From positions 1 through 24,300 of the IMG/VR virus record IMGVR_UViG_3300020045_002203: a DNA stretch of 24,300 bases. One strand, written 5' to 3'. Below are positions 1 to 24,300 of this stretch, in pieces. The stretch comes from a virus. Taxonomy: Duplodnaviria > Caudoviricetes. Made by a program: the position numbers and the translations under genes. The notes under the pieces were generated by a model that worked only from the letters and a program-made list of their open reading frames with translations, ran no database searches and was not told the origin of the DNA. Each line of letters begins with the position of its first letter. Position 1 is the first letter of the stretch.

Positions 1-873
1 TTCAAGGGCAAGGCTTGGGATAACATTAACATTGGTTCATGGGTTCCGATAGATCATGCTGGCATTACTGCCGGTGTTGAGGCTTGGCTTCGCAAAGATA
101 ATGTGACTCCAATTGCTATGGCCCCAAATGGTAAGCGCCTTATGGAAGCCAAAGGTATTGAGTGCGAGTATGTACCTCATGGAATTGATACCAAGATTTT
201 TAAGCCGACTGCCAAAATTCAGGGTGTGCCAGTTCGCGAGTTTATGGGTCTAACTGATGAGTTTGTTGTGGGCATGAACAGCGCAAATAAATCTAGCGGC
301 CTAATGCACCGAAAAAGTTTCTCAGAAAATTTACTTGCATTCGCTATTTTTCGCGAGCGCCACCCAGATGCAGTTTTGTATCTACACACCGAGCCTCTTG
401 GCTCTGCCGGTGGTTGGAATCTAATAAATATGCTTCAGGCTTTTGGTATTCCTAAAGAGGCGGTTATGTTTCCACCAATGGTGGATTACAAGTATGGAAT
501 GAGCCAAGAAGATTTGGCAGCTCTTTACTCGGCTATGGATGTTTTGCTTGCACCTGGATTAGGCGAGGGTTTTGGACTTCCAACTGTTGAGGCTCAATCT
601 TGTGGCACTCGAGTTATTGGTTCTAACTGGGCGGCTACCCCTGATCTTGTTGCTGAGGATTCTTGGCTTGTTGAAGGTCAGCCAACTTGGAATGCTGGGC
701 AGAATGCTATTTGGACTGTACCTTTGGTGACCTCTATTGTCAATGCTCTGGAACTGGCGTACAAAGCCGAGCGAGGCCCTAGCCAAATTGCTATGGATTT
801 TGCTAAACAGTTTGATGTGGATACTGTGTGGGATAAGTATTGGTTGCCAGTTATGAAGAAACTTTTGAAGTGA
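1..873 (+). CDS. GT-B fold glycosyltransferase (GT4 / Glycos_transf_1-like), 5'-truncated by the window edge
   Basis: Frame is open from base 1 (FKGKAWDNINIGSWVPIDH...). Contains VPHGID, LYSAMDVLLAP and the GT4 signature EGFGLPTVEAQSCG. Confidence 0.9.
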   Translation, partial: FKGKAWDNINIGSWVPIDHAGITAGVEAWLRKDNVTPIAMAPNGKRLMEAKGIECEYVPHGIDTKIFKPTAKIQGVPVREFMGLTDEFVVGMNSANKSSGLMHRKSFSENLLAFAIFRERHPDAVLYLHTEPLGSAGGWNLINMLQAFGIPKEAVMFPPMVDYKYGMSQEDLAALYSAMDVLLAPGLGEGFGLPTVEAQSCGTRVIGSNWAATPDLVAEDSWLVEGQPTWNAGQNAIWTVPLVTSIVNALELAYKAERGPSQIAMDFAKQFDVDTVWDKYWLPVMKKLLK

Positions 874-1517
874 TACCGGTTCTCGGATTCTGTACCCTAA
901 AGAGGTTTGACCTTGCTGACCGTTTGCTTGCTTCTATTGACTATCCTGTGGAGCATCTTGTTGTGGTTGATAATTCGGGATTACAGACTTGGACTCCAAC
1001 AAAGCCAGACTGTGTTGGGAAGCTTTGGACTATTCGCGTTCCTTTTGGGCTTGGCTTGGTTGGGGCTTGGAATCTAATAGTCAAGTCCACACCTTATGCG
1101 CCTTACTGGGTACTTGTAAATGATGATGCTCATTTTGCACCTGGCGCTTTAGAAACTATTGCCAAAGAGGTAGACACTCAAGCTCTGAACTTCCTAGACA
1201 TTGTTCCTCAATGGTCAGCGGTTGTCTTTGGCGAGGGCATGGTGGAAAAGGTGGGCCTGTATGATGAACGCTTTTATCCGCTCTACTTTGATGACAATGA
1301 CCTAGAGCGCCGAGTAGATAATGCTGGTGTGCCTAAGAAAACTATTCAGGCCAAAGTTCACCATGACAACTCCAGCACTCTAAACTCAGGTTTCCAGCAA
1401 GTAAATGGAAGAACCTATGCGGCTAACATGAGGCTATTTGATGACAAGCAAGCCGATGGTGATTTTAGTCAAGGCGAGTGGAGTCTAAAAGTAAGAAGGG
1501 CTAACCGATGGGATTGA
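870..1517 (+). CDS. GT-A fold glycosyltransferase (GT2-like)
   Basis: VVVDNS, GAWN, LVNDD (DxD-like) and VGLYDERFYPLYFDDND motifs. Start placed at GTG 870, which overlaps the upstream stop (GTGA). Confidence 0.85.
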   Translation: MIPVLGFCTLKRFDLADRLLASIDYPVEHLVVVDNSGLQTWTPTKPDCVGKLWTIRVPFGLGLVGAWNLIVKSTPYAPYWVLVNDDAHFAPGALETIAKEVDTQALNFLDIVPQWSAVVFGEGMVEKVGLYDERFYPLYFDDNDLERRVDNAGVPKKTIQAKVHHDNSSTLNSGFQQVNGRTYAANMRLFDDKQADGDFSQGEWSLKVRRANRWD

Positions 1518-1945
1518 GAGTCTATGCAGGTGGCTCATTCGATCTGTACCACTATGGCCACGCTGACTTCCTAAAGCGCTGTAAAGAACTAGCAGGTGAA
1601 GATGGGGAAGTCTTTGTATCCCTAAACACCGATGAATTTATCAAGGCCTATAAAGGAAAAGGATTGGTGATGAACTATGAGGAAAGACGGAAAGCGCTCT
1701 TGTCTTGTCGCTATGTTGATGGGGTTTTTGCTAATGTGGGCGGGGCTGATTCTACTATCGCTATTGATTTAGTAAACCCTGACCTTATAGTAGTTGGCTC
1801 AGACTGGGCTAGGAAAGATTATTATGCCCAGATGGGCTTTGACCAAGACTGGCTAGATCAGCGAGGGATAGGCCTTTGCTACATTCCTTACACTCAGGGA
1901 ATCAGCTCGACAGACATAAAGAGTCGCTTGCGGTTCGAGCGGTAG
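1508..1945 (+). CDS. Cytidylyltransferase-family nucleotidyltransferase (TagD/RfaE-like)
   Basis: GGSFDLYHYGH (HxGH), VSLNTDEF, GSDW and YTQGISST motifs typical of glycerol-3-phosphate cytidylyltransferase-like enzymes. Confidence 0.9.
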   Translation: MGLRVYAGGSFDLYHYGHADFLKRCKELAGEDGEVFVSLNTDEFIKAYKGKGLVMNYEERRKALLSCRYVDGVFANVGGADSTIAIDLVNPDLIVVGSDWARKDYYAQMGFDQDWLDQRGIGLCYIPYTQGISSTDIKSRLRFER

Positions 1946-1957
1946 AATAGTGTTATG
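1943..1957 (+). promoter_or_regulatory. Putative -10 box for a leaderless transcript (TAGAAT-N6-ATG)
   Basis: ggTAGAATagtgttATG with no Shine-Dalgarno; the same layout recurs at several gene starts. Confidence 0.55.
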
Positions 1958-2554
1958 GCAATCTCAAATGGATACGCAACTCTAGCCGAGGTAAAGGCTG
2001 CTCTTCGCATTACTGACACCATTGATGACAGTTTGCTAGAAATGGCGATTGAGTCTGCCTCTCGCCTGATTGATGCTCATTGTGCGCGCTCTTTTTACAA
2101 TGCTGGAACTGCTGCTCGCTACTTTGTAGCCGACAATGACTATTTGACCAACATTGATGATGCAATCACTATTACTGAGGTTGCAACCGATACTTCAGCC
2201 GATGGAACTTATGATGTTGTCTGGCAAGCAGATGACTACCAACTAGAGCCTCTAAATGGGCGCGTAGACGGCCTTGTATGGCCTTACAACGCCATTAGAG
2301 CAATAGGTGACTACACCTTCCCAATCTGGGGCGGTGAGGGCTTGGTAAAGGTCACAGGCACTTGGGGCTTCTCGGCTATTCCTACCGCTATCAAGCAAGC
2401 AACCATTATTCAGGCAAGCCGAATCTTCAAGCGCCTAGACTCACCGCTTGGTGTTCTATCAAGCCCAGACCTCGGCTTTATCCGAGTTGGCTCACGCCTT
2501 GATCCAGATGTTTCTCAGTTGGTTGATTCTTACAGGATTGTGAAGTTCGCATAG
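1955..2554 (+). CDS. Head-to-tail adaptor (HK97 gp6 / SPP1 gp15-like)
   Basis: N-terminal YATLAEVKAALRI...DDSLLEMAIESASRLID and C-terminal WGFSAIPTAIKQA; first gene of the neck/tail block. Confidence 0.8.
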   Translation: MAISNGYATLAEVKAALRITDTIDDSLLEMAIESASRLIDAHCARSFYNAGTAARYFVADNDYLTNIDDAITITEVATDTSADGTYDVVWQADDYQLEPLNGRVDGLVWPYNAIRAIGDYTFPIWGGEGLVKVTGTWGFSAIPTAIKQATIIQASRIFKRLDSPLGVLSSPDLGFIRVGSRLDPDVSQLVDSYRIVKFA

Positions 2555-2961
2555 TGGCAAGCATTACCGCTATCCGCTCAGGGCTGGCTACCAGGCTGGC
2601 AACAATCACCGGACTTCGCTCAGGCGCAACTATCCCTGACAATGTGAATCCGCCTTATGCGATTATTGCGCCTTCATCTGTGGATTATCACCGAGCTTTT
2701 AACAACGCACTCTCAACCTACAACTTCACAGTCACTTTGGTTGTTGGTCGAGTGTCAGAGCGCACCGCTCAAAACAGTCTTGATGCCTATTGTTCCCCAA
2801 CTGGAACTGGAAGCATTAGGGTAGCCATTGAAGGAGATAAAACCCTCGGGGGAGTTGTCTTTGATACAATAGTTACAGGCATGAGAAACTACGGCTCGGT
2901 CACCATCGGCGAGAATACCTATCTTGCCGCTGAATTCGATATCGCTGTGCAAGCAGACTAA
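2554..2961 (+). CDS. Tail terminator / tail completion protein
   Basis: 135 aa with an N-terminal helix and PPYAII motif, directly before the tail tube gene; assigned mainly by synteny. Confidence 0.6.
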   Translation: MASITAIRSGLATRLATITGLRSGATIPDNVNPPYAIIAPSSVDYHRAFNNALSTYNFTVTLVVGRVSERTAQNSLDAYCSPTGTGSIRVAIEGDKTLGGVVFDTIVTGMRNYGSVTIGENTYLAAEFDIAVQAD

Positions 2962-2978
2962 ACAAAAGGAAAATCACA

Positions 2979-3389
2979 ATGAGTAAAACCGTTGTAACTA
3001 GCCGCTATGTCAGCATTGGCACAGCGGATGTATCATCAGCCCTATCTGGAGCTTCACTCGAGATAACTACTGAGAGCGTGGATAAGACATCTTTGGCCTC
3101 GGGTGGGTGGAGAGAAGTAGCCGCAGGTTTGAAATCTGCATCTGTAACTCTAAACTTCCAGCAAGACTTTGGTGTTGGTGGAGTAGATGCTTTGCTTTAC
3201 CCACTAATCGGAACAGAGGCTACTGTCACTATCCGCAGCTCGAGCGCAACTGTAAGCGCCACAAATCCTGCCTATTCGGGAGTATTTTTGGTGAATGGCT
3301 TCTCTCCAATCGCCGGATCAGTAGGCGATTTGGCTACATTCGATGTGACCTGGGAGTCAGTCGGGGCAATTAGCCGAGCTACAGCCTAA
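2979..3389 (+). CDS. Major tail tube protein
   Basis: 136 aa beta-rich protein (DKTSL..GWRE..AGLKS, SATNPAYSG, GSVGDLATFDVTW); SD AAGGA upstream; precedes the chaperone. Confidence 0.8.
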   Translation: MSKTVVTSRYVSIGTADVSSALSGASLEITTESVDKTSLASGGWREVAAGLKSASVTLNFQQDFGVGGVDALLYPLIGTEATVTIRSSSATVSATNPAYSGVFLVNGFSPIAGSVGDLATFDVTWESVGAISRATA

Positions 3390-3409
3390 TTACTAAATAA
3401 GGATAAACA

Positions 3410-3661
3410 ATGAAAATCAACCTACGCATCCTATTCCTTGATGGCAACAGCAAGGAAATCACCTGCTCTGCTTCAGACCTTGTAAAGTTTGAAGACAAGT
3501 TCAACATCTCAGTAAGCCGAATCCAGGAAGAAGTGCGAATCACTCACCTTCTGTTCTTGGCTTGGGCTTCTGAGAACCGCACCAAAGCAACCGCTCTGGA
3601 CTTTGATGCTTGGACTGAAACAGTTGAGTCTGTTGGAGCGAGTGAACTAGACCCAAAATAG
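3410..3661 (+). CDS. Tail assembly chaperone (gpG-like)
   Basis: Follows the tail tube gene; ends in GAC CCA AAA TAG (...DPK*), which contains a slippery heptamer. Confidence 0.8.
   Translation: MKINLRILFLDGNSKEITCSASDLVKFEDKFNISVSRIQEEVRITHLLFLAWASENRTKATALDFDAWTETVESVGASELDPK
3652..3658 (+). promoter_or_regulatory. -1 programmed ribosomal frameshift site C CCA AAA
   Basis: X XXY YYZ heptamer in the correct phase just before the stop, with an open -1 frame continuing 51 codons. Confidence 0.8.
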
Positions 3662-3813
3662 TTGGGCTTGGCGATTCATCAAGTCATTGGTACATCGCCA
3701 GCCTCGCTGTTGAAACTGGTATTGCACCTTCAGCTCTTATGGCTGAGTCAGACCGGATGTTGTGGACTATGGGCAGGTATCTTGTCTACCGGTCACAACA
3801 GATGAACAAATAG
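3658..3813 (+). CDS. Tail assembly chaperone frameshift extension (gpT part of gpGT)
   Basis: -1 frame reads IVGLGDSSSHWYIASLAVETGIAPSALMAESDRMLWTMGRYLVYRSQQMNK*; no own start or SD at its 5' end. Not in the ORF track. Confidence 0.75.
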   Translation: MVGLGDSSSHWYIASLAVETGIAPSALMAESDRMLWTMGRYLVYRSQQMNK

Positions 3814-3814
3814 A

Positions 3815-3844
3815 AAGACCCCCGACTACGCATCGGGGGCTTTT
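3815..3844 (+). terminator. Intrinsic terminator
   Basis: CCCCCGA-ctacgca-TCGGGGG 7-bp stem followed by CTTTT. Confidence 0.75.
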
Positions 3845-3855
3845 CGCTTCTAAGG

Positions 3856-3871
3856 TAGAATTGAACCTATG
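3856..3871 (+). promoter_or_regulatory. Putative -10 box for a leaderless transcript (TAGAAT-N7-ATG)
   Basis: ggTAGAATtgaacctATG immediately after the terminator; no SD. Confidence 0.6.
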
Positions 3872-4450
3872 GCTGATGAAATTGTGAAGTTCTATGGTGT
3901 GAAAGAAACCATTAGAGAGATGCGCAAATTCGAGCCAGAGATGCTAAAGGATTTGCGAAAGAACATTCGCCAAATTACTTTGCCAGCAGTATCAGCAATA
4001 AAAAGTAATTCTCCAAAAGTTGCACCTTTATCTGGTATGGCTGGAAATGGGCGAACCGCCTACACAACTCCTAAAGTAAATATTCGCATTACTCCAAGTG
4101 CAAAGTCATTTGGCTTTGGTTCAACTACCTCTAATCTTGTTTCTATAACAGCAACAGGCTCGGGCAATCAAGTTGGTTTTGATATTGCGGATATGGCTGG
4201 CCGAGGCCCTGGTGGCGGACAATATGCGCGAACAAGGCCTTTTATTGATCCTAGAACTGGCGCAACTGTTCGCAGAAAAATCAATGGTCAAGGTAAGAAT
4301 TTGATTGAGGTTTTGAATCAACGCAGTAAGAAATCACCATCAAGATATGTCTATGGTGGGCTTGAAGATAAGTTGCCAGCAATTAGAGCAGAAGTAGCAA
4401 AAGTCATTGGAAAAACTATGGATGACTTTAGCAGAAGGTTGAGAAAATAA
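3869..4450 (+). CDS. Basic neck/tail completion protein (HK97 gp10-like)
   Basis: Lys/Arg-rich; N-terminal VKFYGVKETIREMRKF and C-terminal SRYVY...helix resemble gp10-like proteins; lies in the tail block. Confidence 0.5.
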   Translation: MADEIVKFYGVKETIREMRKFEPEMLKDLRKNIRQITLPAVSAIKSNSPKVAPLSGMAGNGRTAYTTPKVNIRITPSAKSFGFGSTTSNLVSITATGSGNQVGFDIADMAGRGPGGGQYARTRPFIDPRTGATVRRKINGQGKNLIEVLNQRSKKSPSRYVYGGLEDKLPAIRAEVAKVIGKTMDDFSRRLRK

Positions 4451-6681
4451 TGGCAATCAAGGCGATAATTGCTACCCAGTTCGATGCAACTGGTATCAAG
4501 AACGCAACTAAAGAATTTGACAAACTTGGCAAAGGGCTAAGAAACACCCTTGGTGCTGTTGGTTTAGGTGTCGGTCTTGCTGCCATTACTAATGGACTAA
4601 AGGAATCTGCTAAAGCCGCTGTTAGCGATGTCAAGAGCCAGGTACTTCTAGCCCAGCAACTTCGCAACACTCTTGGTGCAACTGATGAGGCCATTGCTGG
4701 TTCAGAAGAGTTCATCAAGAAACTTATGCTTCAAACAAGCATTGCCGATGACCAACTCCGCCCAGCCCTTTCTAAACTTGCTGTTGCAACTGGTGATGTA
4801 AGTTCCGCTCAAACTTTGCTTGCATTAGCGACAGACATTTCTGCTGCCGGTTATGGTGACCTTGAATCGGTATCTAAGGCATTGGGTAAAGCTGCTGCTG
4901 GCAATACAACAACACTATTCAAACTTATTCCATCTCTAAAAGGTTCTGCTGATTGGGCAAAGCAAGCAACCCTTGAGTTTGGTGGCATGGCTGAGGCTGC
5001 CGCAAACAATGATCCTTTCCAGCGCATCAACATCATTATGGGTGAGATGCAGGAAACAATTGGTATGGCACTCTTGCCAACCCTGAATCAGTTCGCTGCT
5101 TGGTTTGCTTCACCTGAAGGTCAGGCAAAGGTTCAAGAATTTGTAGATGTCATTGTTGGTGCTATCAAGGTGCTTGTTGATTTTGCTAACTTTGTATCTG
5201 CCAACATTGATGTATTTACAGATTTGGCTATTGGTATCGGTGGCACAACTATTGCTATCGGTCTATTCAACCTGGCACTAAATACAAACCCTATCTTCCT
5301 ATTTATTGGCGCTCTTGGTGCGCTGGCAACTGCCCTGCAAGCCTTACAGCCAAACATCAATGCTGCTGCTAATGGAGTGCCAACCGCTGTAAACCGAGCC
5401 GCTTCAAAGGTTGGACAAGCCGCCTATGAAAAGGCTCTGCGCGACCCTAAGAACTTTGAGCAAACCTCGACTGGGCCGAAGCTAAAGACTGGTGCGGCTA
5501 TGGTTGCCGAGCAAGCCAGAATGAAGGCTTTCCAAGCTGAGATTGACAAATACAAGGCTAGTATCAAAGAGGCTGACAAGGCAGCACTAAATACAAAGTC
5601 AAACTCGCCATTTGTTCCCTCTACCTCAACTGGTGGATCAAAGGGTAAATCAAAGGCTGATGTTGCTCTTGAAAAAGCACAAAAAGCTCTTGATGGCTTC
5701 AAAACTTCACTAAGAGGTATGGCTGACTTTTCTGCTCTTACCAGTATTGAAAAAGAAGTTGGCGATTTCCAGAAATCAGTTATTGATTCTTTTGCACAGA
5801 TTTACAACAAGATTGCTGAGATGCCAGCCAAGACTAAGGGTCTTGACAAACTTCGCAACTTCCTAAAAGCCGAGCAAGCAATCCTTGAAGAAAATGCCCG
5901 CCAGCGCGATGCAGTAATCAAGAAGCGCTCACTTGCTCAAGCAATTATTGATGATGTCCGCTCTAGCCTTATGGGAACTGGCAACCTTGCCAGTCTTATG
6001 GAAGATCAGACTAAGTCAGTCACAACTACAGTCAGCAAGATTGTTGATGGCTTTACTGTTACCACTAAGCGTACAGTAGATGAGGTTGTTGGCGCTAAGG
6101 GTGTCATTGGCCGACTAAAAGATGTAGTTGCTAAGACTAAAGCCTTCGCGACTCAACTAACTGACCTAAAGGCGCTAGGGCTAAACCCTAACCTATTCAA
6201 GCAGATTGTTGATGCTGGCCCAGAAGTAGGTGGCGAACTTGCTAAGGAAATCCTTACCGGTGGCTCAGATTCAGTAAAAGCGCTAAACAACACCTTCAGC
6301 GAGCTAGAGAAGGTCACAGCCGAAGTATCGGAACAGACCGCAACAGTTATGCTTGAGGCTGGCGCAAAGATTGGTAGCGCACTTGTAGATGGGCTTTTGG
6401 CTGAAGAAGAGCGCCTAGTAAATGCTGCAAAGCAACTGGCTGATGCATTCAACAAGGCATATCAAGAAAACATTATGGCGCTATCTGTTCCAGATGCTCC
6501 AGCCGTCACACCAAAGGTAACTGCTAAGACAACAGTTATTGCTCCAAAGGTGACTATCAAGGCAACACCTCAGACCAAGACCGATGCTCAAAAGGCGGTA
6601 GCAACCATCAACAAGTATTACGCTGCTAACCCAACAGCAATCAAGCCAAGCGCCAACCCGAACTTCTACGCTCATGCCTGA
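4450..6681 (+). CDS. Tape measure protein
   Basis: Longest ORF (743 aa), Ala/Lys-rich and helical with a hydrophobic mid-segment; downstream of the G/GT chaperones. Confidence 0.9.
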   Translation: MAIKAIIATQFDATGIKNATKEFDKLGKGLRNTLGAVGLGVGLAAITNGLKESAKAAVSDVKSQVLLAQQLRNTLGATDEAIAGSEEFIKKLMLQTSIADDQLRPALSKLAVATGDVSSAQTLLALATDISAAGYGDLESVSKALGKAAAGNTTTLFKLIPSLKGSADWAKQATLEFGGMAEAAANNDPFQRINIIMGEMQETIGMALLPTLNQFAAWFASPEGQAKVQEFVDVIVGAIKVLVDFANFVSANIDVFTDLAIGIGGTTIAIGLFNLALNTNPIFLFIGALGALATALQALQPNINAAANGVPTAVNRAASKVGQAAYEKALRDPKNFEQTSTGPKLKTGAAMVAEQARMKAFQAEIDKYKASIKEADKAALNTKSNSPFVPSTSTGGSKGKSKADVALEKAQKALDGFKTSLRGMADFSALTSIEKEVGDFQKSVIDSFAQIYNKIAEMPAKTKGLDKLRNFLKAEQAILEENARQRDAVIKKRSLAQAIIDDVRSSLMGTGNLASLMEDQTKSVTTTVSKIVDGFTVTTKRTVDEVVGAKGVIGRLKDVVAKTKAFATQLTDLKALGLNPNLFKQIVDAGPEVGGELAKEILTGGSDSVKALNNTFSELEKVTAEVSEQTATVMLEAGAKIGSALVDGLLAEEERLVNAAKQLADAFNKAYQENIMALSVPDAPAVTPKVTAKTTVIAPKVTIKATPQTKTDAQKAVATINKYYAANPTAIKPSANPNFYAHA

Positions 6682-7897
6682 TCAGTTAGTTGAAATCGGT
6701 TTTGACCTAGTTCTCCCAACTGGGCCATTCTTTACTCTTGATGACCCAATCAAAGGGCAGTTAGACAACACAACCTATACCCTTGCCGGTTTTCAGTATT
6801 ATGACATCACAAACTATGTGACCAGTATTGAAGTGACCCGAGGTAAGTCCGATGACATTGCCACCATCTCTTCTGGAGAACTGGTTGTCGAGCTGAATAA
6901 CCGCACCCGAGCATTTGACCCAACCTATGAGGCTGGGCCTTACTTTGGGCAGATTATCCCTAAGCGCCTAGTTCGCTACTCAGTAAATGGAATCCAGCAA
7001 TACCAGGGAGTTCTAGATGACTGGGGTCTAAACTACACACCTGATGGCGATGCGGTTGCCAACTTTGTGGCCTCAGATGGCTTTGTGTACCTAAACAACC
7101 AGACCTTAGCGGCAGGAACAGCAACCCCTCAACTATCAGGCGCTCGAGTATCTGAAATCCTAGATAATGAGTTTGTCCAATGGCCGACAGATCAGCGCGA
7201 CATTGACCCAGGCTCAGTAACCCTCGGTGCTAACCCAGTAGATGAAGGTCAGCCGGTTCTAAGTTACTTGCAAGCAATTGAGCAGTCAGAGCTTGGATTG
7301 TTCTTTATTGACAAGACTGGCAAGGCAACCTTTAGGGATAGAACTCACAGCCCAATTACCACAGACCTTGTAAAGTTTGCCGATGATGGCACAGGCATTT
7401 CCTACCAGAATCTTCTAATCTCTTATGGGTCGGAAGACTTGGTAAATGAGGTTGTATCCACCTCGGTCATTACAACCACCGAAACAACCAGTATTGATGA
7501 GGCCTCGCAAGAAGAGTTCGGTATCTTCAATGCCACTTTCCCTGACTTGCTTCTTAGCACCGATGAGCAGGTAGCGGTTTACAACTCAACCCTCTTGGCT
7601 AAATACTCTCAGCCGGTCTACCGCTTCAGTGAACTAGAAGTGCGACTAAATGACCTAAGCGAAGCCGACCAGAATGCTGTGCTAAACCTAGAACTAGGTG
7701 ACTTTGTGCAGGTGGTTTTCACACCTAGCAACCTACCGCCAGCAATCAACAAATATGCAGCGGTGATCCGAGCCAACCACTCAGTAGACATCTCAGGCGA
7801 ACACATTGTGACCCTCGGGCTAAATACCCTAAACTTTACCTATCTAATCCTCGATGACACCATCTTTGGTAAACTAGATGAAGGCTCACTAAGCTAA
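6674..7897 (+). CDS. Tail tip / baseplate hub-type minor tail protein
   Basis: Acidic 407-aa protein straight after the TMP; DITNYV.SIEVTRG, LFFIDKTGKATFRDR and LELGD motifs. Confidence 0.65.
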   Translation: MPDQLVEIGFDLVLPTGPFFTLDDPIKGQLDNTTYTLAGFQYYDITNYVTSIEVTRGKSDDIATISSGELVVELNNRTRAFDPTYEAGPYFGQIIPKRLVRYSVNGIQQYQGVLDDWGLNYTPDGDAVANFVASDGFVYLNNQTLAAGTATPQLSGARVSEILDNEFVQWPTDQRDIDPGSVTLGANPVDEGQPVLSYLQAIEQSELGLFFIDKTGKATFRDRTHSPITTDLVKFADDGTGISYQNLLISYGSEDLVNEVVSTSVITTTETTSIDEASQEEFGIFNATFPDLLLSTDEQVAVYNSTLLAKYSQPVYRFSELEVRLNDLSEADQNAVLNLELGDFVQVVFTPSNLPPAINKYAAVIRANHSVDISGEHIVTLGLNTLNFTYLILDDTIFGKLDEGSLS

Positions 7898-7904
7898 GGA
7901 AATC

Positions 7905-8297
7905 ATGGCAGTCAGAAAAACTTTTACCGCAACCGAGGTTCTTACAGCGGCCAACACTAACCTGTATCTTTACAACAGGCCAGATGTCACCTCTTCAACC
8001 GCTACCGCTTACACAGCGACCACTAGCGATGTAAACAAGACCCTTCAGTTCACCGCTGCTTCTGCTGTGACTGTGACCATTTCTACCGCAACCGCCCTGG
8101 TTGCTGGTGAGGTTTTCAATGTTCTCCGCGATGGTGCTGGAACTGTTACTGTAACCGCTGCTTCAACTGCTGTGACTATCAAGGGTCGCGGAACAGCGGC
8201 TACTAACTATGCCATTGGCACACAATATGACATGATCTCGGTGCAATGTGTGGGAACTAATGATTACCGTGTTATCGGAAATGCTACTGCCAGCTAA
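7905..8297 (+). CDS. Minor tail / fibre-associated protein
   Basis: N-terminal KTFTATEVLTAANTNLYL anchor-type motif; Thr/Ala-rich beta content. Confidence 0.6.
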   Translation: MAVRKTFTATEVLTAANTNLYLYNRPDVTSSTATAYTATTSDVNKTLQFTAASAVTVTISTATALVAGEVFNVLRDGAGTVTVTAASTAVTIKGRGTAATNYAIGTQYDMISVQCVGTNDYRVIGNATAS

Positions 8298-8836
8298 TGC
8301 TTATTCCTTTTGGTGTTTTTAGTGCTGGAGTTAGTGCTGGGCCAACTAACTCTTTTGAGTTGATTAGCACTACAATTCTTGGTTCAACATCCTCAATCAT
8401 AAGTTTTACATCTATCCCATCAACTTATAAACATCTTCAAATTCGCTTTGCTCAGGTGGCTTCTGCTGGTAATGCTGGTTCTGCTATGAGTTTGACTTTT
8501 AACAGTGTTGGTGGAACTTCTTATGCTTATCACTGGCTTGTAGGTTCTGGTAGTTCAGTTTCTTCCGGAGCATCACCTGCTAGTCAGTCAATTATGAAAG
8601 TATTTGGTGAAATTGTGGGTACAGATACTACTAAGCCAACTGTCGGAATTATTGACATTTTTGATTATGCAAATACAACAACAAATAAAACAGTTAGGGC
8701 TTTTGCTGGTATTGCCACAGGTGAAGTTTCTTTGCACTCTGGAGTATTTATGAATACATCGGCTATTTCATCTTTGACTCTTGGTTCTCCAAGTGCTATT
8801 GGTAGCCGTTTTAGTCTTTATGGAATCAAGGGATAA
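8297..8836 (+). CDS. Putative tail fibre / receptor-binding subunit, paralogue 1
   Basis: LISTTILGS...FTSIPSTYKHLQIR...DYANTTTNKT...NTSAISSL...FSLYGI; shares these motifs with the next two genes. Confidence 0.55.
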   Translation: MLIPFGVFSAGVSAGPTNSFELISTTILGSTSSIISFTSIPSTYKHLQIRFAQVASAGNAGSAMSLTFNSVGGTSYAYHWLVGSGSSVSSGASPASQSIMKVFGEIVGTDTTKPTVGIIDIFDYANTTTNKTVRAFAGIATGEVSLHSGVFMNTSAISSLTLGSPSAIGSRFSLYGIKG

Positions 8837-8838
8837 TA

Positions 8839-9324
8839 ATGCCAACACCTACTTATACACCGCTGGCTAACATTACCCTTGGCTCAAGTGCTAACCCAGT
8901 TACTTTTTCAAGCATTAGCCAGTCTTATAAAGATTTAGTACTTGTTATTACTGGAAATATAGATGCTTCCGGTGCCACTATGGTTCGATTTAATTTGGAT
9001 TCTGGTTCTAATTATTCATATGTTCTTATGCAGGGTAACGGCTCGACAACTTTTTCAACTTCTGTTTCAACTAACCTAATTTATACAGGGGTTATGCCAA
9101 ATTCGACAACAAATGTCAGCACTTATACTGTGCAAATTATGGATTACTCAGCAACGGATAAGCATAAAACAGCTCTTGTTAGGTCTAGTGATTCAGCCAA
9201 CTTGGTTCATGCAATAGCGGGGCGTTGGGCAAATACCTCTGCTATTACAACTATTGAAGTATATGGTTCGGGTGCAAGTTTTCGGGCTGGAACAACAATG
9301 GCTCTTTATGGGATTGCGGCTTAA
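8839..9324 (+). CDS. Putative tail fibre / receptor-binding subunit, paralogue 2
   Basis: LANITLGS...FSSISQSYKDLVL...DYSATDKHKT...WANTSAITTI...MALYGI. Confidence 0.55.
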   Translation: MPTPTYTPLANITLGSSANPVTFSSISQSYKDLVLVITGNIDASGATMVRFNLDSGSNYSYVLMQGNGSTTFSTSVSTNLIYTGVMPNSTTNVSTYTVQIMDYSATDKHKTALVRSSDSANLVHAIAGRWANTSAITTIEVYGSGASFRAGTTMALYGIAA

Positions 9325-9326
9325 TT

Positions 9327-9857
9327 ATGGCTAATGAAACAATGACCTTAATTAGCACCGTAACTGTGGGGGCTGGTGGAGCTTCAACCATAGACTTCAC
9401 ATCCATTCCACAGACCTACACAGACTTAAAATTATATGTAAGCACCAGAACTACAAGTTCAGGAGCAGTAGGTGAAGTTGCTTACATTACTTTAAACGGT
9501 TCAACATCATCATTTACTGGAAGATACTTACAAGGTAGCGGTTCGGCTACAAGTTCTGGCTCACTAGGCAGATTTGCTGCTTTAAGCACAGATGGAAGTG
9601 CCACAGCAAATACATTTTCTAATAATGAGATTTATATTGCGAATTATGCTGGTTCTACATATAAAGCTTTTAGCGGTGATGCAGTAGTTGAAAATAACGC
9701 AACAACCTCATACCAAGAATTGCTTGCTAACCTTTGGTCTAATACAGCAGCAATTACATCTATCACTCTAAATACTTCTGGCGGTGTATTTGCACAATAT
9801 TCAACAGTCAGTTTGTATGGCATCCTAAAAGGCTCTGGCGGAGCAACTGTTTCTTAA
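9327..9857 (+). CDS. Putative tail fibre / receptor-binding subunit, paralogue 3
   Basis: LISTVTVGA...FTSIPQTYTDLKL...NYAGSTYKA...WSNTAAITSI...VSLYGI. Confidence 0.55.
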   Translation: MANETMTLISTVTVGAGGASTIDFTSIPQTYTDLKLYVSTRTTSSGAVGEVAYITLNGSTSSFTGRYLQGSGSATSSGSLGRFAALSTDGSATANTFSNNEIYIANYAGSTYKAFSGDAVVENNATTSYQELLANLWSNTAAITSITLNTSGGVFAQYSTVSLYGILKGSGGATVS

Positions 9858-9878
9858 TAACTAGCAAGGAAGAAAAAA

Positions 9879-10109
9879 ATGACTGAAACACTTACCAAAA
9901 TCCTGATTGATTGCAGCACAGGCGAACAGACTGTTGTTCCTTTGACTGCTGAGGAAATTGCACAGCGTGAAGCTGATGCTCTAGCGTATGCGGAACAAAA
10001 GGCAACTCAGGAAGCTGAGGAAGCTGCTAAAGCTGCGGCTAAAGCAAGTGCAGAGGCGAAACTTGCTGCTCTGGGTTTGACCGCTGATGAGATTGCAGCT
10101 CTCAAGTAA
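9879..10109 (+). CDS. Small fibre-associated protein (possible assembly chaperone)
   Basis: IDCSTGEQTVVPLTAEE followed by an Ala/Glu helix ending KLAALGLTADEIAAL; SD AAGGA; follows the fibre genes. Confidence 0.5.
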   Translation: MTETLTKILIDCSTGEQTVVPLTAEEIAQREADALAYAEQKATQEAEEAAKAAAKASAEAKLAALGLTADEIAALK

Positions 10110-10152
10110 AATAGACTAAACGGCCTACGCAACCGGACAAGAAAGACCGATT

Positions 10153-10371
10153 GTGTCAGATCAAGAAGTGCCAGTATGGGCGCAAGAACTCATAAGAGAA
10201 GTAACTATCCTGAATGAGCGCTTGCCTAACCACATAGATTACACAACCAGAAATATCTCGGATCATGAGGCAAGAATTAGAACCCTCGAGGCCTTCAGAT
10301 GGTTGCTGTTGGGTGTCGCATCTGTATCCGGTTTAGCCGGTGCTTGGATTTCTAAACTGCTAGGAATCTAA
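10153..10371 (+). CDS. Small membrane protein (coiled coil plus C-terminal TM helix; holin-associated / XhlA-like)
   Basis: DHEARIRTLE coiled coil followed by hydrophobic WLLLGVASVSGLAGAWISKLLGI. Confidence 0.55.
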   Translation: MSDQEVPVWAQELIREVTILNERLPNHIDYTTRNISDHEARIRTLEAFRWLLLGVASVSGLAGAWISKLLGI

Positions 10372-10374
10372 AAG

Positions 10375-13059: not shown

Positions 13060-13121
13060 CTTGCTCCTAAATGTCGGTGGTATCAACTAGGTTAGGCATA
13101 CAAGCAAGAAAGGGCAAATCC
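13060..13121. promoter_or_regulatory. Divergent promoter region whiB / recombination operon
   Basis: Short gap between head-to-head genes; ATGTCGGTGG then TAGGTT (13088-13093, TANNNT); SD GAAAGGG before ATG 13122. Confidence 0.5.
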
Positions 13122-15322: not shown

Positions 15323-15663
15323 AGCTGCCTAGCAAGATTCGGATTGGCTCTCAGATTTGGGAGATTACCGAGCAAAAGCGCAAACACAATTCTGAGTTCC
15401 TTGATGGCACTTATGGGTTCACAGTAGATAAAGACAACACTATTGTTCTTGATGCTGAAATGGCTTCATCTATCCGCCGAGTCACTTTGTTCCATGAGGT
15501 GCTTCATGCTGTGAGATTTGTTTTTGGTGGTTCTTTTAAGCCTGGCAAAACAACAACTTATGAGGAATGGGAGCATTACTGGATTGGACTTTATGAAGAA
15601 CCGGTTTTGATGGTGCTTAGGGATAACCCAGAATTATTAGCCTTTTTATTGGCAGATGACTAA
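15319..15663 (+). CDS. HExxH zinc metallopeptidase (ImmA/IrrE-like)
   Basis: YGFT...IVLD...RRVTLFHEVLHA with a downstream EE. Confidence 0.75.
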   Translation: MKLPSKIRIGSQIWEITEQKRKHNSEFLDGTYGFTVDKDNTIVLDAEMASSIRRVTLFHEVLHAVRFVFGGSFKPGKTTTYEEWEHYWIGLYEEPVLMVLRDNPELLAFLLADD

Positions 15664-15989
15664 TGACACCTCGCGAGTTTCAAAAGTATCTTGATCGCGA
15701 TGGTTATGCCTGTTGGCATTGTGGAACAACCGAAACCCTAGTGCCTCAGCATCGAGCTGGGCGTGGTATGGGTGGCAGTAAAAAACAAACACCAGCAAAT
15801 ATTATTGTCTTATGCTCGCTGTTCAATGGTCTGATTGAGTCTGATGCTAAAGCGGCAGGTATGGCTTTGCGCTATGGATGGAAAGTTTCAAGGTATGAGA
15901 AGCCTGTAGAAAAACCTGTGTATAACATTGTGGAAGGCTTGTGGTATTTCCTAAATGATGATTACACGCGACAAGCTGTTATAGAATAA
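15663..15989 (+). CDS. HNH endonuclease
   Basis: RDGYACWHCG...QHR..RGMGGS....NIIVLCSLFN. Confidence 0.8.
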   Translation: MTPREFQKYLDRDGYACWHCGTTETLVPQHRAGRGMGGSKKQTPANIIVLCSLFNGLIESDAKAAGMALRYGWKVSRYEKPVEKPVYNIVEGLWYFLNDDYTRQAVIE

Positions 15990-16051: not shown

Positions 16052-16552
16052 ATGTCTAAGCCTAGCCCATCGGGCAATATCAGGCAATTTGAGCCACAGG
16101 TTTTATACCGATTCTGGCAAAATGAAACTTTACTTTACATTGGCATAAGTCAATCTTTTCTTAGCCGAATGGATCAGCACTACGCAACAAAAGAGTGGTT
16201 CAAATTTATTACTAACATTACTCTTGAGCATTTTCCTACTCGCTATGATGTAGAACAAGCTGAAAAGCAAGCAATCAAAAAAGAAGCGCCTATGTTCAAC
16301 TTGGTTTACAACACTAAGAATCTAAAAGGCATGACTCAGGTGACTAGACTAGAGAACCTATTACCCGATGATTACTTTTACAATTTGCCAGAAACCAAAC
16401 AAGAGCGTAAGGTATTCATCGAAAGCCTAAAATCAGAAAAGGGTGGCTATACAAGACTTACTCTTTCTAAACTCAGAGTTCCTTATCCACCGCCTAAAGC
16501 ATGGAGAAGTAAACTAATCGAGCATGGCAAGTTAGTAACCAAAACTAAATAA
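16052..16552 (+). CDS. GIY-YIG nuclease domain protein with an extra basic C-terminal module
   Basis: VLY...LLYIGIS...R..QH...AE..AI...P.FN pattern; C-terminal GGYTR..L..L.VPYPPPKAWR. Confidence 0.8.
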   Translation: MSKPSPSGNIRQFEPQVLYRFWQNETLLYIGISQSFLSRMDQHYATKEWFKFITNITLEHFPTRYDVEQAEKQAIKKEAPMFNLVYNTKNLKGMTQVTRLENLLPDDYFYNLPETKQERKVFIESLKSEKGGYTRLTLSKLRVPYPPPKAWRSKLIEHGKLVTKTK

Positions 16553-18183: not shown

Positions 18184-18227
18184 GTCTTACAGCCAAAAAG
18201 GCCTGAAAGATAAGAAGGGGAAACAAA

Positions 18228-20462: not shown

Positions 20463-20466
20463 AGGA

Positions 20467-20694
20467 ATGCTTGAAGACCTAACCGCTCCACCTTCTAAGA
20501 TTTGGACTTGTCGAGTTCGCACCTTAGCAAGTGAACTAAGCGACAAAGATGCCGCCATCCTTGCCGAAGCTATTGCCAATCCGCAATGGAAAGCCGAAAC
20601 CCTATCTAAAGCCCTAAACCAAAAAGGGCTAAAGATTGCCGGATCAGGTATCACTCGACACCGACAAGGAAACTGCTCATGCTCGAAAATTTAG
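20467..20694 (+). CDS. Small Cys/His helical protein (possible zinc- or DNA-binding partner of the phosphoesterase)
   Basis: C.V...L...D...L..A...LSKAL...G.....I.RHR.G.CSC pattern; overlaps the next gene. Confidence 0.65.
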   Translation: MLEDLTAPPSKIWTCRVRTLASELSDKDAAILAEAIANPQWKAETLSKALNQKGLKIAGSGITRHRQGNCSCSKI

Positions 20695-21824
20695 GCCCAG
20701 CACCAAAGATAGAAACACCTATTGGCTGGAAACCGGCAGTCGAGTTTGATGGCACAGAAGGTGTAGCAACAACACCTGGACTAGCAGACGGACTTGATTA
20801 CACCGAGTTCCTAGAGCAAGCCGGATACTCGCCAGACATCTATGAAGTGATTGGCGCACCTCGCACCTCTCGCTGGCAGGTCTATGACGGTTCTTGGCGC
20901 ACCTCTTACCGCTTCCACTTCCGCCTAAAGCCTGACAATGCAGTTGCATTACCTCTGCTCTACAAGGAAGCAAAGAAGACTAAGGTTAGTCCACCTAAAC
21001 TAACCGCTAATGGCAAGGTGCTAGTTATTGCCACCGCTGACTATCAGATTGGCAAAAAAGCGAGTAGAGGTGGAACACCTGAGTTGCTCGCAAGATTATT
21101 TACTTCTTATGCCAACATAACCAGTCATCTAAAAAAGAATAAGTATGAACAGATTATTATTCTGGATGCCGGTGACATTATTGAGAACTTTGGAAATGCC
21201 GCCGACCTAGCCCAACTCCAATCTAATGACCTCTCAATTCAGGATCAGATTGATTTAGCAGCGACATTACAATTTGACCTAATCAAGCTGGCTAATAAGT
21301 ATGCTCCAGTAACCTATGCCTCAGTAGGCTCTAACCATTGCCAATGGCGAGTTAATAAGCAGGTAGTGGGAAAGCCGGTAGATGACTGGGGAATCTTTAT
21401 TGTCAAGCAACTTCGCAAGATAACTACTGAAATTGGTATGGATGTCAAATACCTTATTCCAGGTGACTATGAAGAAACACTAGCCCTAGACCCTTTTGAG
21501 GATAAGTTCCATGTTGTAGGTCTATTTCATGGGCATCAAGCAGCAAGACCTGAGCAAGTTCCTAACTGGCTCGAGAAACAGGTTGCCGGACTACAACCTC
21601 TTATGAATTTCTCTGTTGCGGTGTCAGGCCACTATCACCATACTCGCATCCAGCAATTAGGTGCTGCTCATAATGGCGGCTCAAGATGGTGGATTCAAGC
21701 CTCAACAATGGACTCAGGAAGCGACTGGTTTAGATTGCGGTCAGGTCAGGATGCTACAACCGGAATCACAGCCTTTGAGTTAGAGAAGCAGGTGCTATTC
21801 AATGGGTCGGTGTTTAGATTTTGA
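20679..21824 (+). CDS. Calcineurin-like metallophosphoesterase (Mre11/SbcD-like superfamily)
   Basis: ADYQIG, GDIIE, GSNH, HGH and GHYH metal-binding motifs in canonical order. Confidence 0.85.
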   Translation: MLENLGPAPKIETPIGWKPAVEFDGTEGVATTPGLADGLDYTEFLEQAGYSPDIYEVIGAPRTSRWQVYDGSWRTSYRFHFRLKPDNAVALPLLYKEAKKTKVSPPKLTANGKVLVIATADYQIGKKASRGGTPELLARLFTSYANITSHLKKNKYEQIIILDAGDIIENFGNAADLAQLQSNDLSIQDQIDLAATLQFDLIKLANKYAPVTYASVGSNHCQWRVNKQVVGKPVDDWGIFIVKQLRKITTEIGMDVKYLIPGDYEETLALDPFEDKFHVVGLFHGHQAARPEQVPNWLEKQVAGLQPLMNFSVAVSGHYHHTRIQQLGAAHNGGSRWWIQASTMDSGSDWFRLRSGQDATTGITAFELEKQVLFNGSVFRF

Positions 21825-22003: not shown

Positions 22004-22233
22004 TGTGTCATTGTGGAGAAGCAATCAAAGCCAAAGGCCTATGCTCCAAGCATTACCTAGCAGACTACCGCCAGCGTAAACAGCAAGGCCTAATAAAAAA
22101 GACACCAATCATCGAACTCATCGAAGCAACCTACAAAGACACACCTAACTGTGGAGTATGTGGAGAACCTAAGCGAGCTAAGAACCTATGTACTAAGCAC
22201 TATTTTCAACTAAGAAGGGGAACAAATGATTAG
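22003..22233 (+). CDS. Protein with two tandem C-C-C-H zinc motifs
   Basis: CHCGEAIKAKGLCSKHY and CGVCGEPKRAKNLCTKHY. Confidence 0.7.
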   Translation: MCHCGEAIKAKGLCSKHYLADYRQRKQQGLIKKTPIIELIEATYKDTPNCGVCGEPKRAKNLCTKHYFQLRRGTND

Positions 22234-23791
22234 CCTACCGAATGCGACTGTGTATCACGGCTCTAACCTTGATGTACTACCAAGCCTGCCGGACAACTCG
22301 GTGGACTCGATTGTGACTGATCCGCCTTATGAACTGGGTTTTATGGGCAAGTCTTGGGATAACTCAGGCATTGCTTACTCGGTTGAGTTGTGGACTGAGT
22401 GTATGCGAGTGCTAAAGCCAGGTGGTCACTTGCTTGCCTTTGGTGGGTCTAGAACTTGGCACAGACTTGCGGTTGCGATTGAGGATGCTGGCTTTGAGAT
22501 GCGCGACTCGATTGCTTGGCTCTATGGCTCAGGCTTTCCTAAGTCAATGGATGTCAGTAAAGCTATTGACAAGATAAACGGTAAGCCTCGAAACCTAACA
22601 GATTTTACTCTTTGGCTAAGAACAACAGGTGTAACTATAAAACAAGTGACTCAAGTTTTGAGAGATGCAAAACTTATTTCCGAGAATGGAACAATGGCAT
22701 CACACTATTTTGCAATATCTGAAGCAGGACAGCCAGCCATTCCGACAGTTGCCATATGGAAAGTCATTAGGCCACTCTTAGCCGCAGTGCCTGAGTGGGT
22801 TGATGAAATGGTTACTCGCATTGAAGCTGAGCGTGAAGTGATTGGGAAAGGTGCTGATTATGGACATACATTGGAAAAAGAGATTGATCAAAAATTTGGT
22901 TTTAAGAAAGATTATGACATAACTGCACCTGCTACCCCCGAAGCTCAGAAATGGCAAGGTTGGGGAACAGCACTAAAGCCAGCCTTTGAACCTGTTGTTG
23001 TAGCTCGCAAACCTTTGATTGGAACTGTTGCCGCTAATGTGTTGGCTTATGGAACTGGTGGGCTAAACATAGATGCCAGTCGGATAGGAACAGAAAAGAT
23101 TTCCACGCACCACGCACCAAAGGGAACATTCGCTGGTGGTGAGCAAGACAGAGGATCTGACACTTCGACCTATCAGGAACACACAGGTCGCTGGCCAGCA
23201 AACATAATCCTTGATTCTTATACCGCTGAACTACTAGATGAACAGAGTGGAGTTAGCAAGTCAGGTAAGCCAGGCGCGCGCACCTCTGATGGATTCAATA
23301 CCAACTCTTATGGGCAAGGCATCGGCATCAAAGCAGGTCAAGATAATGGCGAGTATGGTGACTCTGGTGGCGCTTCTCGATTCTTTTATGTAGCCAAAGC
23401 ATCTAAGAAAGACCGCAATGAAGGACTGGAAGAACTAGAAGCACAACTAACTGCTGCTGCTAATTTCAGACCTAACCATATGGAAAAGGCACTAGAAGGG
23501 GAAAGCGGCAATCCATTCGGTCGCTTCCAACCGGTGAAGAACTTTCACCCAACAGTCAAGCCAACAGCACTAATGGAATACCTAATCAAACTGGTAACAC
23601 CTGAAGGCGGAACAGTCCTTGATCCTTTTACCGGCTCAGGCTCGACTGGCAAGGCTGCTCTACTCAACGGCTATCAGTTCATTGGTATAGAGCTAACAGA
23701 TGAATACCTGCCAATTATTGAAGGCAGACTCAAGTGGGCTAATGAGCAAGCCAGCAAGAAAGAAGAAGAAAAGAAAGAGGTGCTGTTCTAA
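22226..23791 (+). CDS. DNA amino-methyltransferase (N6-adenine / N4-cytosine, beta-class motif order)
   Basis: VTDPPY near the N-terminus; HPTVKP and VLDPFTGSGSTG near the C-terminus. Confidence 0.92.
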   Translation: MISLPNATVYHGSNLDVLPSLPDNSVDSIVTDPPYELGFMGKSWDNSGIAYSVELWTECMRVLKPGGHLLAFGGSRTWHRLAVAIEDAGFEMRDSIAWLYGSGFPKSMDVSKAIDKINGKPRNLTDFTLWLRTTGVTIKQVTQVLRDAKLISENGTMASHYFAISEAGQPAIPTVAIWKVIRPLLAAVPEWVDEMVTRIEAEREVIGKGADYGHTLEKEIDQKFGFKKDYDITAPATPEAQKWQGWGTALKPAFEPVVVARKPLIGTVAANVLAYGTGGLNIDASRIGTEKISTHHAPKGTFAGGEQDRGSDTSTYQEHTGRWPANIILDSYTAELLDEQSGVSKSGKPGARTSDGFNTNSYGQGIGIKAGQDNGEYGDSGGASRFFYVAKASKKDRNEGLEELEAQLTAAANFRPNHMEKALEGESGNPFGRFQPVKNFHPTVKPTALMEYLIKLVTPEGGTVLDPFTGSGSTGKAALLNGYQFIGIELTDEYLPIIEGRLKWANEQASKKEEEKKEVLF

Positions 23792-23967
23792 TGCCGACAT
23801 ACCTCTATGAATGTAAGACCTGTGAACAAAGGGTAAGTATCAACCGAGCAATCACAGACCAAGAGATTCCACCTATCTGTATAGAGTGTGCCAAGCCAAT
23901 GCTGAAACAGTTTGGGCTAACAGGTGTGACCTTCAAAGGCTCAGGCTGGGGAAAGGACAAGAACTAA
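23791..23967 (+). CDS. FmdB-family zinc ribbon protein
   Basis: MPTYLYECKTC...PICIEC...M.K......VTFKGSGW. Not in the ORF track. Confidence 0.85.
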   Translation: MPTYLYECKTCEQRVSINRAITDQEIPPICIECAKPMLKQFGLTGVTFKGSGWGKDKN

Positions 23968-24071
23968 TGACACCTATGGACATCGCATGGGGAATTGTAT
24001 TAGGTGGGCTAATACTAGGCGGAATAAGTTTTGTGCTATTACTGATTCTCGGTTGGTTGAGTGACCTATGA
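23967..24071 (+). CDS. 34-aa single-TM mini-protein
   Basis: MTPMDIAWGIVLGGLILGGISFVLLLILGWLSDL; SD AAAGGA; TAATG and ATGA coupling. Confidence 0.6.
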   Translation: MTPMDIAWGIVLGGLILGGISFVLLLILGWLSDL

Positions 24072-24300
24072 CTAATGGACATGGCAACCAGTCTTATCAG
24101 GAAAGAAACAACAGACCTGACAACTTTGGTGAAGAACTATTCATAGACCATTGCCGAGCGCATGGCCTGACCTGTAGGCGAATAGGCTTTGATGAGAAGC
24201 AAGGCTCAATCCCTAACTATTGGGATCTAAACAAAGTAATCCGCCAACTCCCAGACTTTGTATTGACCGGTTTGGTCTTTGGTCATTGCCCGCTGGAGTT
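24068..24300 (+). CDS. Partial ORF, possible PD-(D/E)xK nuclease (3'-truncated)
   Basis: MTNGHGNQSYQERN...GEELF...IRQLPDFVL, open to the window edge; E-helix plus PD motif, but the (D/E)xK is not visible. Confidence 0.45.
   Translation, partial: MTNGHGNQSYQERNNRPDNFGEELFIDHCRAHGLTCRRIGFDEKQGSIPNYWDLNKVIRQLPDFVLTGLVFGHCPLE

Follow-up and report, generated by a model that had tools for sequence, protein, structure and literature searches.

The tetranucleotides ACGA, TCGT and ACGT are completely absent from a 24,300-bp stretch of phage DNA, positions 1 to 24,300 of the IMG/VR virus record IMGVR_UViG_3300020045_002203 (hereafter the window, meaning this stretch at its full length). Judged by its genes, the window is a contig of a phiPsal1-like siphovirus with WhiB. 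The observation is real and extreme, and the loss of the three words, which make up ACGW read on both strands (W, A or T; S, C or G; N, any base), was probably imposed by a defence of the host. In kind this reading is well supported, with both agent and host putative. That a single agent with an ACG core lies behind the purge is a narrower proposal, to which we give somewhat less than an even chance.

Absence of ACGW from the window

Exact counting gave ACGA 0, TCGT 0 and ACGT 0 in 24,300 bp, as claimed in the sequence-only reading that preceded this analysis, and placed the total far under three null models. Base composition (zero-order) predicts 280.9 (~281) copies of the three words together. 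A synonymous-codon shuffle, in which all proteins and the global codon usage were preserved, predicts 122.5, with a minimum of 98 in 1000 shuffles. The second-order Markov expectation is 29.3 (16.5 + 10.1 + 2.7), under a null that takes the depletion of the ACG and CGT trimers into account already. Codon bias is thus no full explanation. The earlier remark that ACG always precedes, and CGT always follows, a C or G also proved exact, since it holds for all 54 ACG and all 38 CGT trimers. Other CG-containing words are still present, including those previously described as common (TCGA 56, CCGA 94, GCGA 81, ACGC 33 and ACGG 21), as well as GCGT (20) and CCGT (18).

The words ACGS/SCGT are also scarce in the window, with 92 copies observed versus 317 expected from composition and 207 from the codon shuffle. 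Thus W at the fourth place is fully forbidden, while S is disfavoured some two- to three-fold. The nine remaining NCGN words stand at expectation (665 observed; 680 by composition, 653 by shuffle), from which it follows that the low CpG ratio of the window (observed/expected, O/E, 0.59) is wholly an ACG/CGT effect. ACG is used for only 6 of 525 threonine codons and CGT occurs as a codon 16 times; the codon usage indicates that all three missing words can be avoided by synonymous codons in every frame.

The purge is strand-symmetric, ACGA and TCGT both being absent although 41 of the 42 called genes lie on the + strand. It spans all codon frames and, as the sequence-only reading had noted, the non-coding DNA, which makes up 11% of the window and has 0 sites. 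Symmetry of ACGA and TCGT in the face of nearly one-stranded transcription argues that the target is duplex DNA and rules out a target at the RNA level.

Purged and unpurged relatives

IMG/VR contains a large family of ~30-kb phages related to the window, designated here by our own labels. Repeating the counts on these phages showed that the absence recurs in independently assembled relatives, and that close relatives may be ACGW-free, ACGT-free only, or mosaic, which is the variation looked for as a test of restriction avoidance. ACGW-free close relatives from other metagenomes are L003, L005/G003, L007, L008, L012-L015 and L017, of which G003 (L005) extends over 19.5 kb with 0 ACGW sites. 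L002/L010 has 0-2 sites, and ACGW is also at or near 0 in L257, L263/G408, L277 and L283. In 116 kb of pooled ACGA-free sequence, which is partly redundant or related, there are 1 ACGW site and 480 ACGS sites. A further set of close relatives is free of ACGT but carries ACGA/TCGT (G002, 85 sites; G004, 40; L016, 51), and in the distant relatives G005, L020-L022 and Pontimonas phage phiPsal1 all three words occur at normal levels.

The most instructive relative is G001, a complete 32.5-kb genome with terminal repeats. It has ACGT 0 throughout and 40 ACGA/TCGT sites, which fall within ~13 kb of blocks running from the glycosyltransferases to the tail and from portal to terminase (record positions about 1-9000 and 13000-17000). 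A single site is found in the capsid-protease block and the entire fibre-to-replication half taken together, the latter aligning to the window at 75-94% identity. L009 and L025 also display sharp block boundaries of ACGA sites. Such boundaries in three phages imply that the purge is a heritable property of DNA segments, reshuffled by recombination; the confinement of sites to blocks in G001 indicates recent recombination between purged and unpurged lineages.

Among 54 unrelated contigs of at least 8 kb with a methyltransferase homologous to that of the window, none was without ACGA. Unrelated environmental phage contigs carrying a related methyltransferase (L032, L033, L044 and others) have CCTC/GAGG 0 versus 54-136 expected, with several palindromes also missing. 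This phage family is therefore not alone in having lost an asymmetric 4-mer altogether.

ACG as the probable unit of removal

What is being removed is probably ACG and not two unrelated 4-mers, as several results indicate. The density of ACGS falls from ~17 per kb in unpurged G005 to 7.5-11 in ACGT-only close relatives and 4.1 in ACGA-free sequence. At 147 aligned positions with ACGA in relatives, the window most often has ATGA (34), ACAA (18), GCGA (16) or TCGG (10); the differences are mostly transitions (ATGA, ACAA, GCGA), the direction of change being open. Of these sites 85 are one base off ACGA, and none of them differs at position 4. In the frame that places both outer bases at third codon positions, the 5' A alone is changed at 14 sites and the 3' A alone at 0, and in 13 further sites of that frame that keep the CG the 5' A is changed in 13/13. 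Even with the direction of change open, ACGS is clearly no accepted alternative to ACGA.

In G407 (26.2 kb; L335/L336) nearly the whole trimer is gone, with only 28 ACG/CGT sites left (O/E 0.03), evenly along the contig: ACGT 0, ACGC 3, ACGA 9 and ACGG 16. CCGA, GCGA, GCGC, CCGC and TCGA stand at 0.96-1.56 of expectation in this contig and CCGG at 0.24. We also noted a single GTAC site in G407, and a near-whole ACG/CGT purge in L270 and L271. G408 and L277 (GC 52%) lack ACGW and have roughly half the expected ACGS; their companion purges are different, involving AGCT, GATC and GTAC.

The ACGA purge is nested within the ACGT purge, no locus in any survey being without ACGA yet with ACGT. A capsid tree of 77 rows (FastTree), built from short, mosaic loci, requires 6 changes of the ACGA-free label, of which well-supported branches force at least 4; in this tree 6/6 ACGA-free rows are ACGT-free, versus 44/77 overall. 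Taken together, these results suggest a two-layered ACGW purge, in which a widespread loss of ACGT encloses a rarer loss of ACGA, with ACG as the probable common core. The 480 pooled residual ACGS sites showed no clear extended motif beyond a scarcity of G at -2 and of CACGG and ACGGG. The idea that one-mutation neighbours of two purged palindromes are lost with them was rejected, for ACGG in L151, which lies next to both ACGT (0) and CCGG (0), is at expectation.

Words purged across the family

A word was counted as purged at O/E <= 0.05, and two surveys were made, one of 62 loci of at least 7 kb around the exonuclease gene and one of 59 loci of at least 6 kb around the capsid protein gene. 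ACGT was purged in 37/62 exonuclease loci and 34/59 capsid loci, followed by GTAC (24/62 and 20/59), CGCG (18/62 and 2/59), ATAT (17/62 and 10/59), GATC (11/62 and 13/59), CCGG (11/62 and 8/59), GCGC (10/62 and 9/59), TTAA (9/62 and 4/59) and CATG (6/62 and 10/59). TCGA was purged in 6/62 exonuclease loci. The asymmetric CCTC was purged in 3/62 and 9/59, ACGA in 2/62 and 5/59, and CTCC, GGAC, CGAG and GGCC in 4/59 capsid loci each. The words purged in the family are thus mostly classic Type II palindromes, a pattern that looks like restriction avoidance. At the level of trimers, 27 of 114 loci of at least 8 kb, some of which are pieces of one contig, have a trimer below 0.3 of expectation: ACG in 15, CGA in 6, CTC in 5 and CCG in 1.

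Two further series with a trimer at their centre were seen. In G410 (L339/L340; also L286-L288, L291-L293 and L321) CTC/GAG is reduced to 84 sites (O/E 0.10), with GGAC 0, CTCC 2, CCTC 4, CGAG 5, CATG 0 and GTAC 0; this contig has two N6_N4 methyltransferase genes. L149, L151 and L153 have a CGA/TCG-centred series, with TCGA 0, ACGA 1-11, CCGA 7-14 and GCGA 14-67, and CCGG 0. On these counts the TCGA-centred series is the mirror image of the ACGN series of the window.

The window itself has long gaps in other words, namely a TTAA-free gap of 5.8 kb (2699-8498; TTAA total 21 versus 130 expected), an ATAT-free gap of 4.6 kb (18101-22714) and a GTAC-free gap of 3.3 kb (16844-20123; GTAC total 20 versus 94 expected). 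Such gaps could be remnants of further purges, left in mosaic blocks.

Gene content and probable host

The 42 called genes were annotated by PHROG and Pfam scans. Two glycosyltransferases and a cytidylyltransferase-like gene (1..1945, +) precede the head-tail adaptor. Virion glycosylation has reportedly been described for other actinophages; the cluster, which in phiPsal1 likewise stands between the capsid and neck genes, may serve that function. The tail module (1955..11553, +) comprises adaptor, tail terminator, major tail protein, tape measure (4450-6681, +), tail protein (6674-7897, +) and small variable open reading frames (ORFs), and has no ACGW. An M23 endolysin, SSB and RusA are also encoded. 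The only called minus-strand gene is a WhiB-like regulator (12721..13086, -), a marker of actinobacterial hosts. It is followed by a RecE/YqaJ-type exonuclease (13071..13997, +), for which phages of actinobacterial hosts make up 82 of the 84 matching records.

Several nuclease genes lie further on. An HNH endonuclease (15663..15989, +) has homologues of 52-58% identity in both ACGA-free and ACGA-bearing relatives. Next to it lies a GIY-YIG endonuclease (16052..16552, +), found only in this window (0/25 related loci). The G001 alignment breaks across this stretch (window 15663-16918), and the GIY-YIG gene is probably a homing-type insertion. HNH-like ORFs start at window positions 18939 and 22003, and an exonuclease of phrog_284 (20679..21824, +) is the family-wide marker with which 80 relatives were collected. 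A beta-class N6/N4 DNA methyltransferase of 521 aa with a large insert (22226..23791, +) is related to CcrM, RsrI and DpnA. At its position in G001 (record 17473-18174) a 233-aa methyltransferase is found instead, within flanking DNA that is 90-94% identical. The window methyltransferase is absent from the other purged contigs covered, and no motif could be tied to it. A partial terminal ORF (24068..24298, +) has no family match, and neither has its 151-aa counterpart in G001.

The closest named phage is Pontimonas phage phiPsal1 (MG835450), which provides the only good match to the tail protein (37.5% identity). Its gene order is as in the window, i.e. capsid, glycosyltransferases, neck, tail, M23 peptidase, exonuclease, WhiB, resolvase, HNH, N6 methylase, SSB and repair nuclease; the window shares this order, homologous tail, lysis and replication genes, and WhiB with what can informally be called the phiPsal1-like aquatic actinophages. 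In contrast to the window, phiPsal1 has no motif purge (ACGA 122, TCGT 91 and ACGT 145 in 31 kb; GC 53%). Its own host link rests on co-sequencing at 2% stoichiometry (PMC6106888), and another study describes cultured Planktophila phages with whiB and glycosyltransferases (PMC10202952).

The WhiB protein matches only Actinomycetota genomes. Its best broad-coverage matches, at 47% identity each, are to a Nanopelagicaceae metagenome-assembled genome (MAG) and an unclassified actinobacterial MAG, and over a shorter stretch it is 55% identical to a Nocardia genome. WhiB together with the phiPsal1-like layout makes an actinobacterium the probable host, and on these homologies it is probably an aquatic one. 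No relative turned up in the genome contigs scanned with the tail protein, and 20 kb of the window gave only short matches in 401 Nanopelagicales genomes, so that there is no prophage or DNA-level host link; the phage collection contained no near-identical record for the window. Two other leads to the host were discarded: distant DNA matches of 80-140 bp to Vibrio and Pseudoalteromonas phages are uninformative, and the endolysin homologues are all unnamed metagenomic proteins that hold no host information.

Origin of the purge

The sequence-only reading had offered two interpretations, selection by a host defence that recognises ACGW and self-avoidance of a phage-encoded nuclease. The former is the better supported, by the strand symmetry, the cover of all frames and of non-coding DNA, the variation by lineage and by block, and the palindrome purging of the family; the latter is not supported, as set out below. 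We suggest that the selecting agent would be a host nuclease acting on double-stranded DNA, part of a defence centred on ACG, for which ACGT and ACGA would be the best substrates and ACGG and ACGC poorer ones. Phages with such sites would be destroyed, and surviving lineages would be those rid of every site, synonymous changes sufficing. Longer exposure, or a broader variant of the agent, would purge more words, and recombination with unpurged relatives would return sites in blocks. In the form that we prefer, there would be one agent or a related set, with a specificity widening from ACGT to ACGW to ACGN across host strains.

Avoidance of restriction sites, i.e. palindromes, in phage genomes has reportedly been described by Sharp in 1986, Rocha et al. 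in 2001 and Rusinov et al. in 2018. As in that phenomenon, the purge of short words in the window is strand-symmetric, covers all frames, is lineage-specific and proceeds via synonymous changes. It departs from the classic form in that ACGA/TCGT is non-palindromic, the purge is total and not partial, and a trinucleotide core with graded loss of ACGS is involved, up to the loss of nearly all ACG in G407. ACGT is the specificity of the Type IIP enzymes MaeII, TaiI and HpyCH4IV, and is both one of the three missing words and the word most often purged in the family; the window is, however, also without ACGA, which those enzymes are not known to cut. Short asymmetric specificities include MnlI (CCTC), AciI (CCGC), RlaI (VCW) and the chlorovirus nickase Nt.CviPII (CCD). 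These establish that non-palindromic recognition of 3-4 bp exists, and CCTC is fully purged in some relatives, but none of the four is known to recognise ACGA, ACGW or ACG. The chlorovirus enzymes, moreover, are virus-encoded and paired with self-methylation, not with site avoidance as in the window.

In 20-kb samples from 40 complete Nanopelagicales genomes, an order to which the phage can be assigned only weakly, ACGT had an O/E of 0.16-0.9 in 40/40 and ACGA of 0.31-1.1. In one of these samples (L216; G058:C1:400001-420000) GTAC occurs 2 times versus 77 expected, GTAC being the second most purged word of the phage family. Low ACGT and GTAC in Nanopelagicales agrees with the two favourite purges of the phages, an apparent correspondence that depends on the unproven host assignment. 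A study on Planktophila describes a genomic island with variable restriction genes of types I and II (PMC12817590).

A number of points weigh against a host defence centred on ACG. The host assignment is weak, with WhiB at most 47% identical to a Nanopelagicaceae MAG and the tail protein 37.5% identical to that of phiPsal1, and a comparison of 20 kb of the window with 401 Nanopelagicales genomes gave only short chance-level matches (E of at least 6e-7). ACGN is the most depleted NCGN row in all seven tabulated Nanopelagicales samples; since these candidate host genomes under-use such words, part of the ACGS deficit may be host-like composition and not direct selection. ACGT-only purging is common, so a strict ACGT agent stands alone and ACGA could be the work of a second, unrelated system. 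The order of depletion also differs, being W << G < C in the window and T, C < A < G in G407, which fits one enzyme poorly. We know of no restriction enzyme for ACGA or ACGW, and none was found in the literature searched (REBASE lay outside that search). The main text of one paper (PMC8919816) has no ACGT, ACGA or TCGT. For its acI bins, a single-molecule real-time (SMRT) sequencing study of Lake Biwa lists 0 methylated motifs and 0 methyltransferases (PMC6329791). This does not favour restriction-modification in that host group, although the bins were incomplete and 5-methylcytosine (m5C) is poorly detected.

Two or more overlapping systems are a serious rival to a single enzyme. In the version considered here, which we regard as possible though rather unlikely, a common ACGT Type IIP restriction-modification system would act beside a separate, unrelated asymmetric ACGA/TCGT system (Type IIS, IIG or III-like) present only in hosts of the window's lineage. 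The surveys lend this some weight, ACGT being purged alone in most of the family with ACGA ranging from normal to absent. CCTC, CTCC, GGAC and CGAG, which have no ACG core, are fully purged elsewhere, making asymmetric 4-bp agents plausible in these hosts. In the Lake Biwa study, the Type IIG-like enzyme M.ObaBS10I from a freshwater verrucomicrobial bin has a verified ACGAG specificity with N6-methyladenine (m6A) as product (PMC6329791). It resembles what is sought in being asymmetric, ACGA-containing and from a lake community; unlike it, the 5-bp motif would remove ACGAG only, whereas the window is without all ACGAN, and the bin belongs to another phylum than the putative host. Two independent systems do not readily account for the fact that every ACGA-free locus is also ACGT-free over some 4-6 separate origins, nor for ACGS, which is co-depleted and never an escape. 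The purge in G407 reaches all ACGN with other CG words normal, and there is a parallel TCGA-centred series (TCGA 0, ACGA about 0, CCGA low, GCGA intermediate).

Self-avoidance, in which a phage nuclease would cut ACGW in host or competitor DNA while the phage's own site-free genome is safe, is improbable. The window does encode the HNH at 15663, the GIY-YIG at 16052, the HNH-like ORFs at 18939 and 22003 and two exonucleases, and candidate host genomes, with ~2-9 ACGA/TCGT and 0.6-3.6 ACGT sites per kb, would be an effective target. Furthermore, ~8 kb of the phage genome lie outside the window and most ACGW-free relatives are fragments, so that a gene tracking the purge could lie there. The nucleases named in the sequence-only reading nonetheless fail to follow the purge. 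GIY-YIG is missing from all 25 related loci, among them ACGW-free G003, although both G003 and G001 extend across its position; the first HNH has homologues alike in purged (L003, L005; 58%) and unpurged relatives (L004, 58%; L001, 52%). The partial terminal ORF has its homologue in G001, which with the same replication module tolerates 40 ACGA/TCGT sites, and neither this ORF nor the methyltransferase is shared with the other purged contigs covered. More than 10 motifs are purged across the family, which exceeds the number for which ~30-kb genomes are likely to encode nucleases.

Mutational decay, by methylation of the ACG cytosine followed by deamination, or a host-like codon or dinucleotide bias is very improbable. 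Transition products are the commonest states at relatives' ACGA (ATGA 34/147, ACAA 18/147), ACG and CGT are rare codons, and the sampled Nanopelagicales under-use ACGN as well. Against this, the codon-preserving shuffle still expects 122 sites and the second-order Markov model 29, and ATGA, ATGT, ACAA and ACAT are not enriched in the window (O/E 0.76-1.14), i.e. there is no excess of products. One site in 116 kb would demand a ~1000-fold motif-specific excess of mutation, the block boundaries in G001, L009 and L025 are unexpected from a genome-wide bias, and the bacterial O/E never falls under 0.16.

Just as doubtful is that ACG/CGT is the protospacer-adjacent motif (PAM) of a host CRISPR-Cas system, which a phage without the motif would evade at both acquisition and interference. 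The avoided cores (ACG, CGA and CTC) are PAM-like in being 3 nt long. Reported PAM depletions are weak, and the absolute effect of W versus S at the fourth base is unlike a 3-nt PAM. The words purged alongside in the family are restriction palindromes of the classic kind. A depletion of PAMs in phages has been proposed (PMC4246573), and the Planktophila study reports no CRISPR-Cas genes in its Nanopelagicales isolates (PMC12817590), the host being uncertain. That ACGW merely became unreadable, as an artefact of sequencing or assembly or through a modified base, has next to no likelihood, as the same absence is found across many separate metagenome assemblies, relatives at 75-90% identity carry the words normally, no single-substitution neighbour or other misread product is enriched, and the replacements in alignments are diverse.

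Significance

Restriction avoidance is textbook knowledge for palindromes of 4-6 bp. The purge described here is asymmetric and centred on ACG, and in one relative it goes as far as to remove a whole trinucleotide, which makes it a new form of this known phenomenon. Complete removal of a non-palindromic 4-mer points to specificities of defence not found described in the paper literature searched (REBASE being outside that search), and the putative hosts count among those aquatic bacteria that are most abundant and hardest to work with. We tentatively suggest, at rather less than even likelihood, that abundant uncultured aquatic actinobacteria carry an undescribed ultra-short asymmetric DNA-targeting defence, whose ACG core is read as ACGT, ACGW or ACGN in different strains, besides sister cores CGA and CTC, and in response to which phages drop a whole trinucleotide. 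If true, this predicts an enzyme activity, cleavage at ACGW or ACG with cognate methylation, that could be sought in genomic islands of the hosts and in methylomes from metagenomes. Recombinants, in which sites return block by block, would then offer a natural read-out of the rate at which sites are lost and regained during host switching. The purge patterns of phage contigs would be barcodes for the unseen defence repertoire of their hosts, so that such repertoires could be inferred, and phages linked to hosts, from sequence alone.

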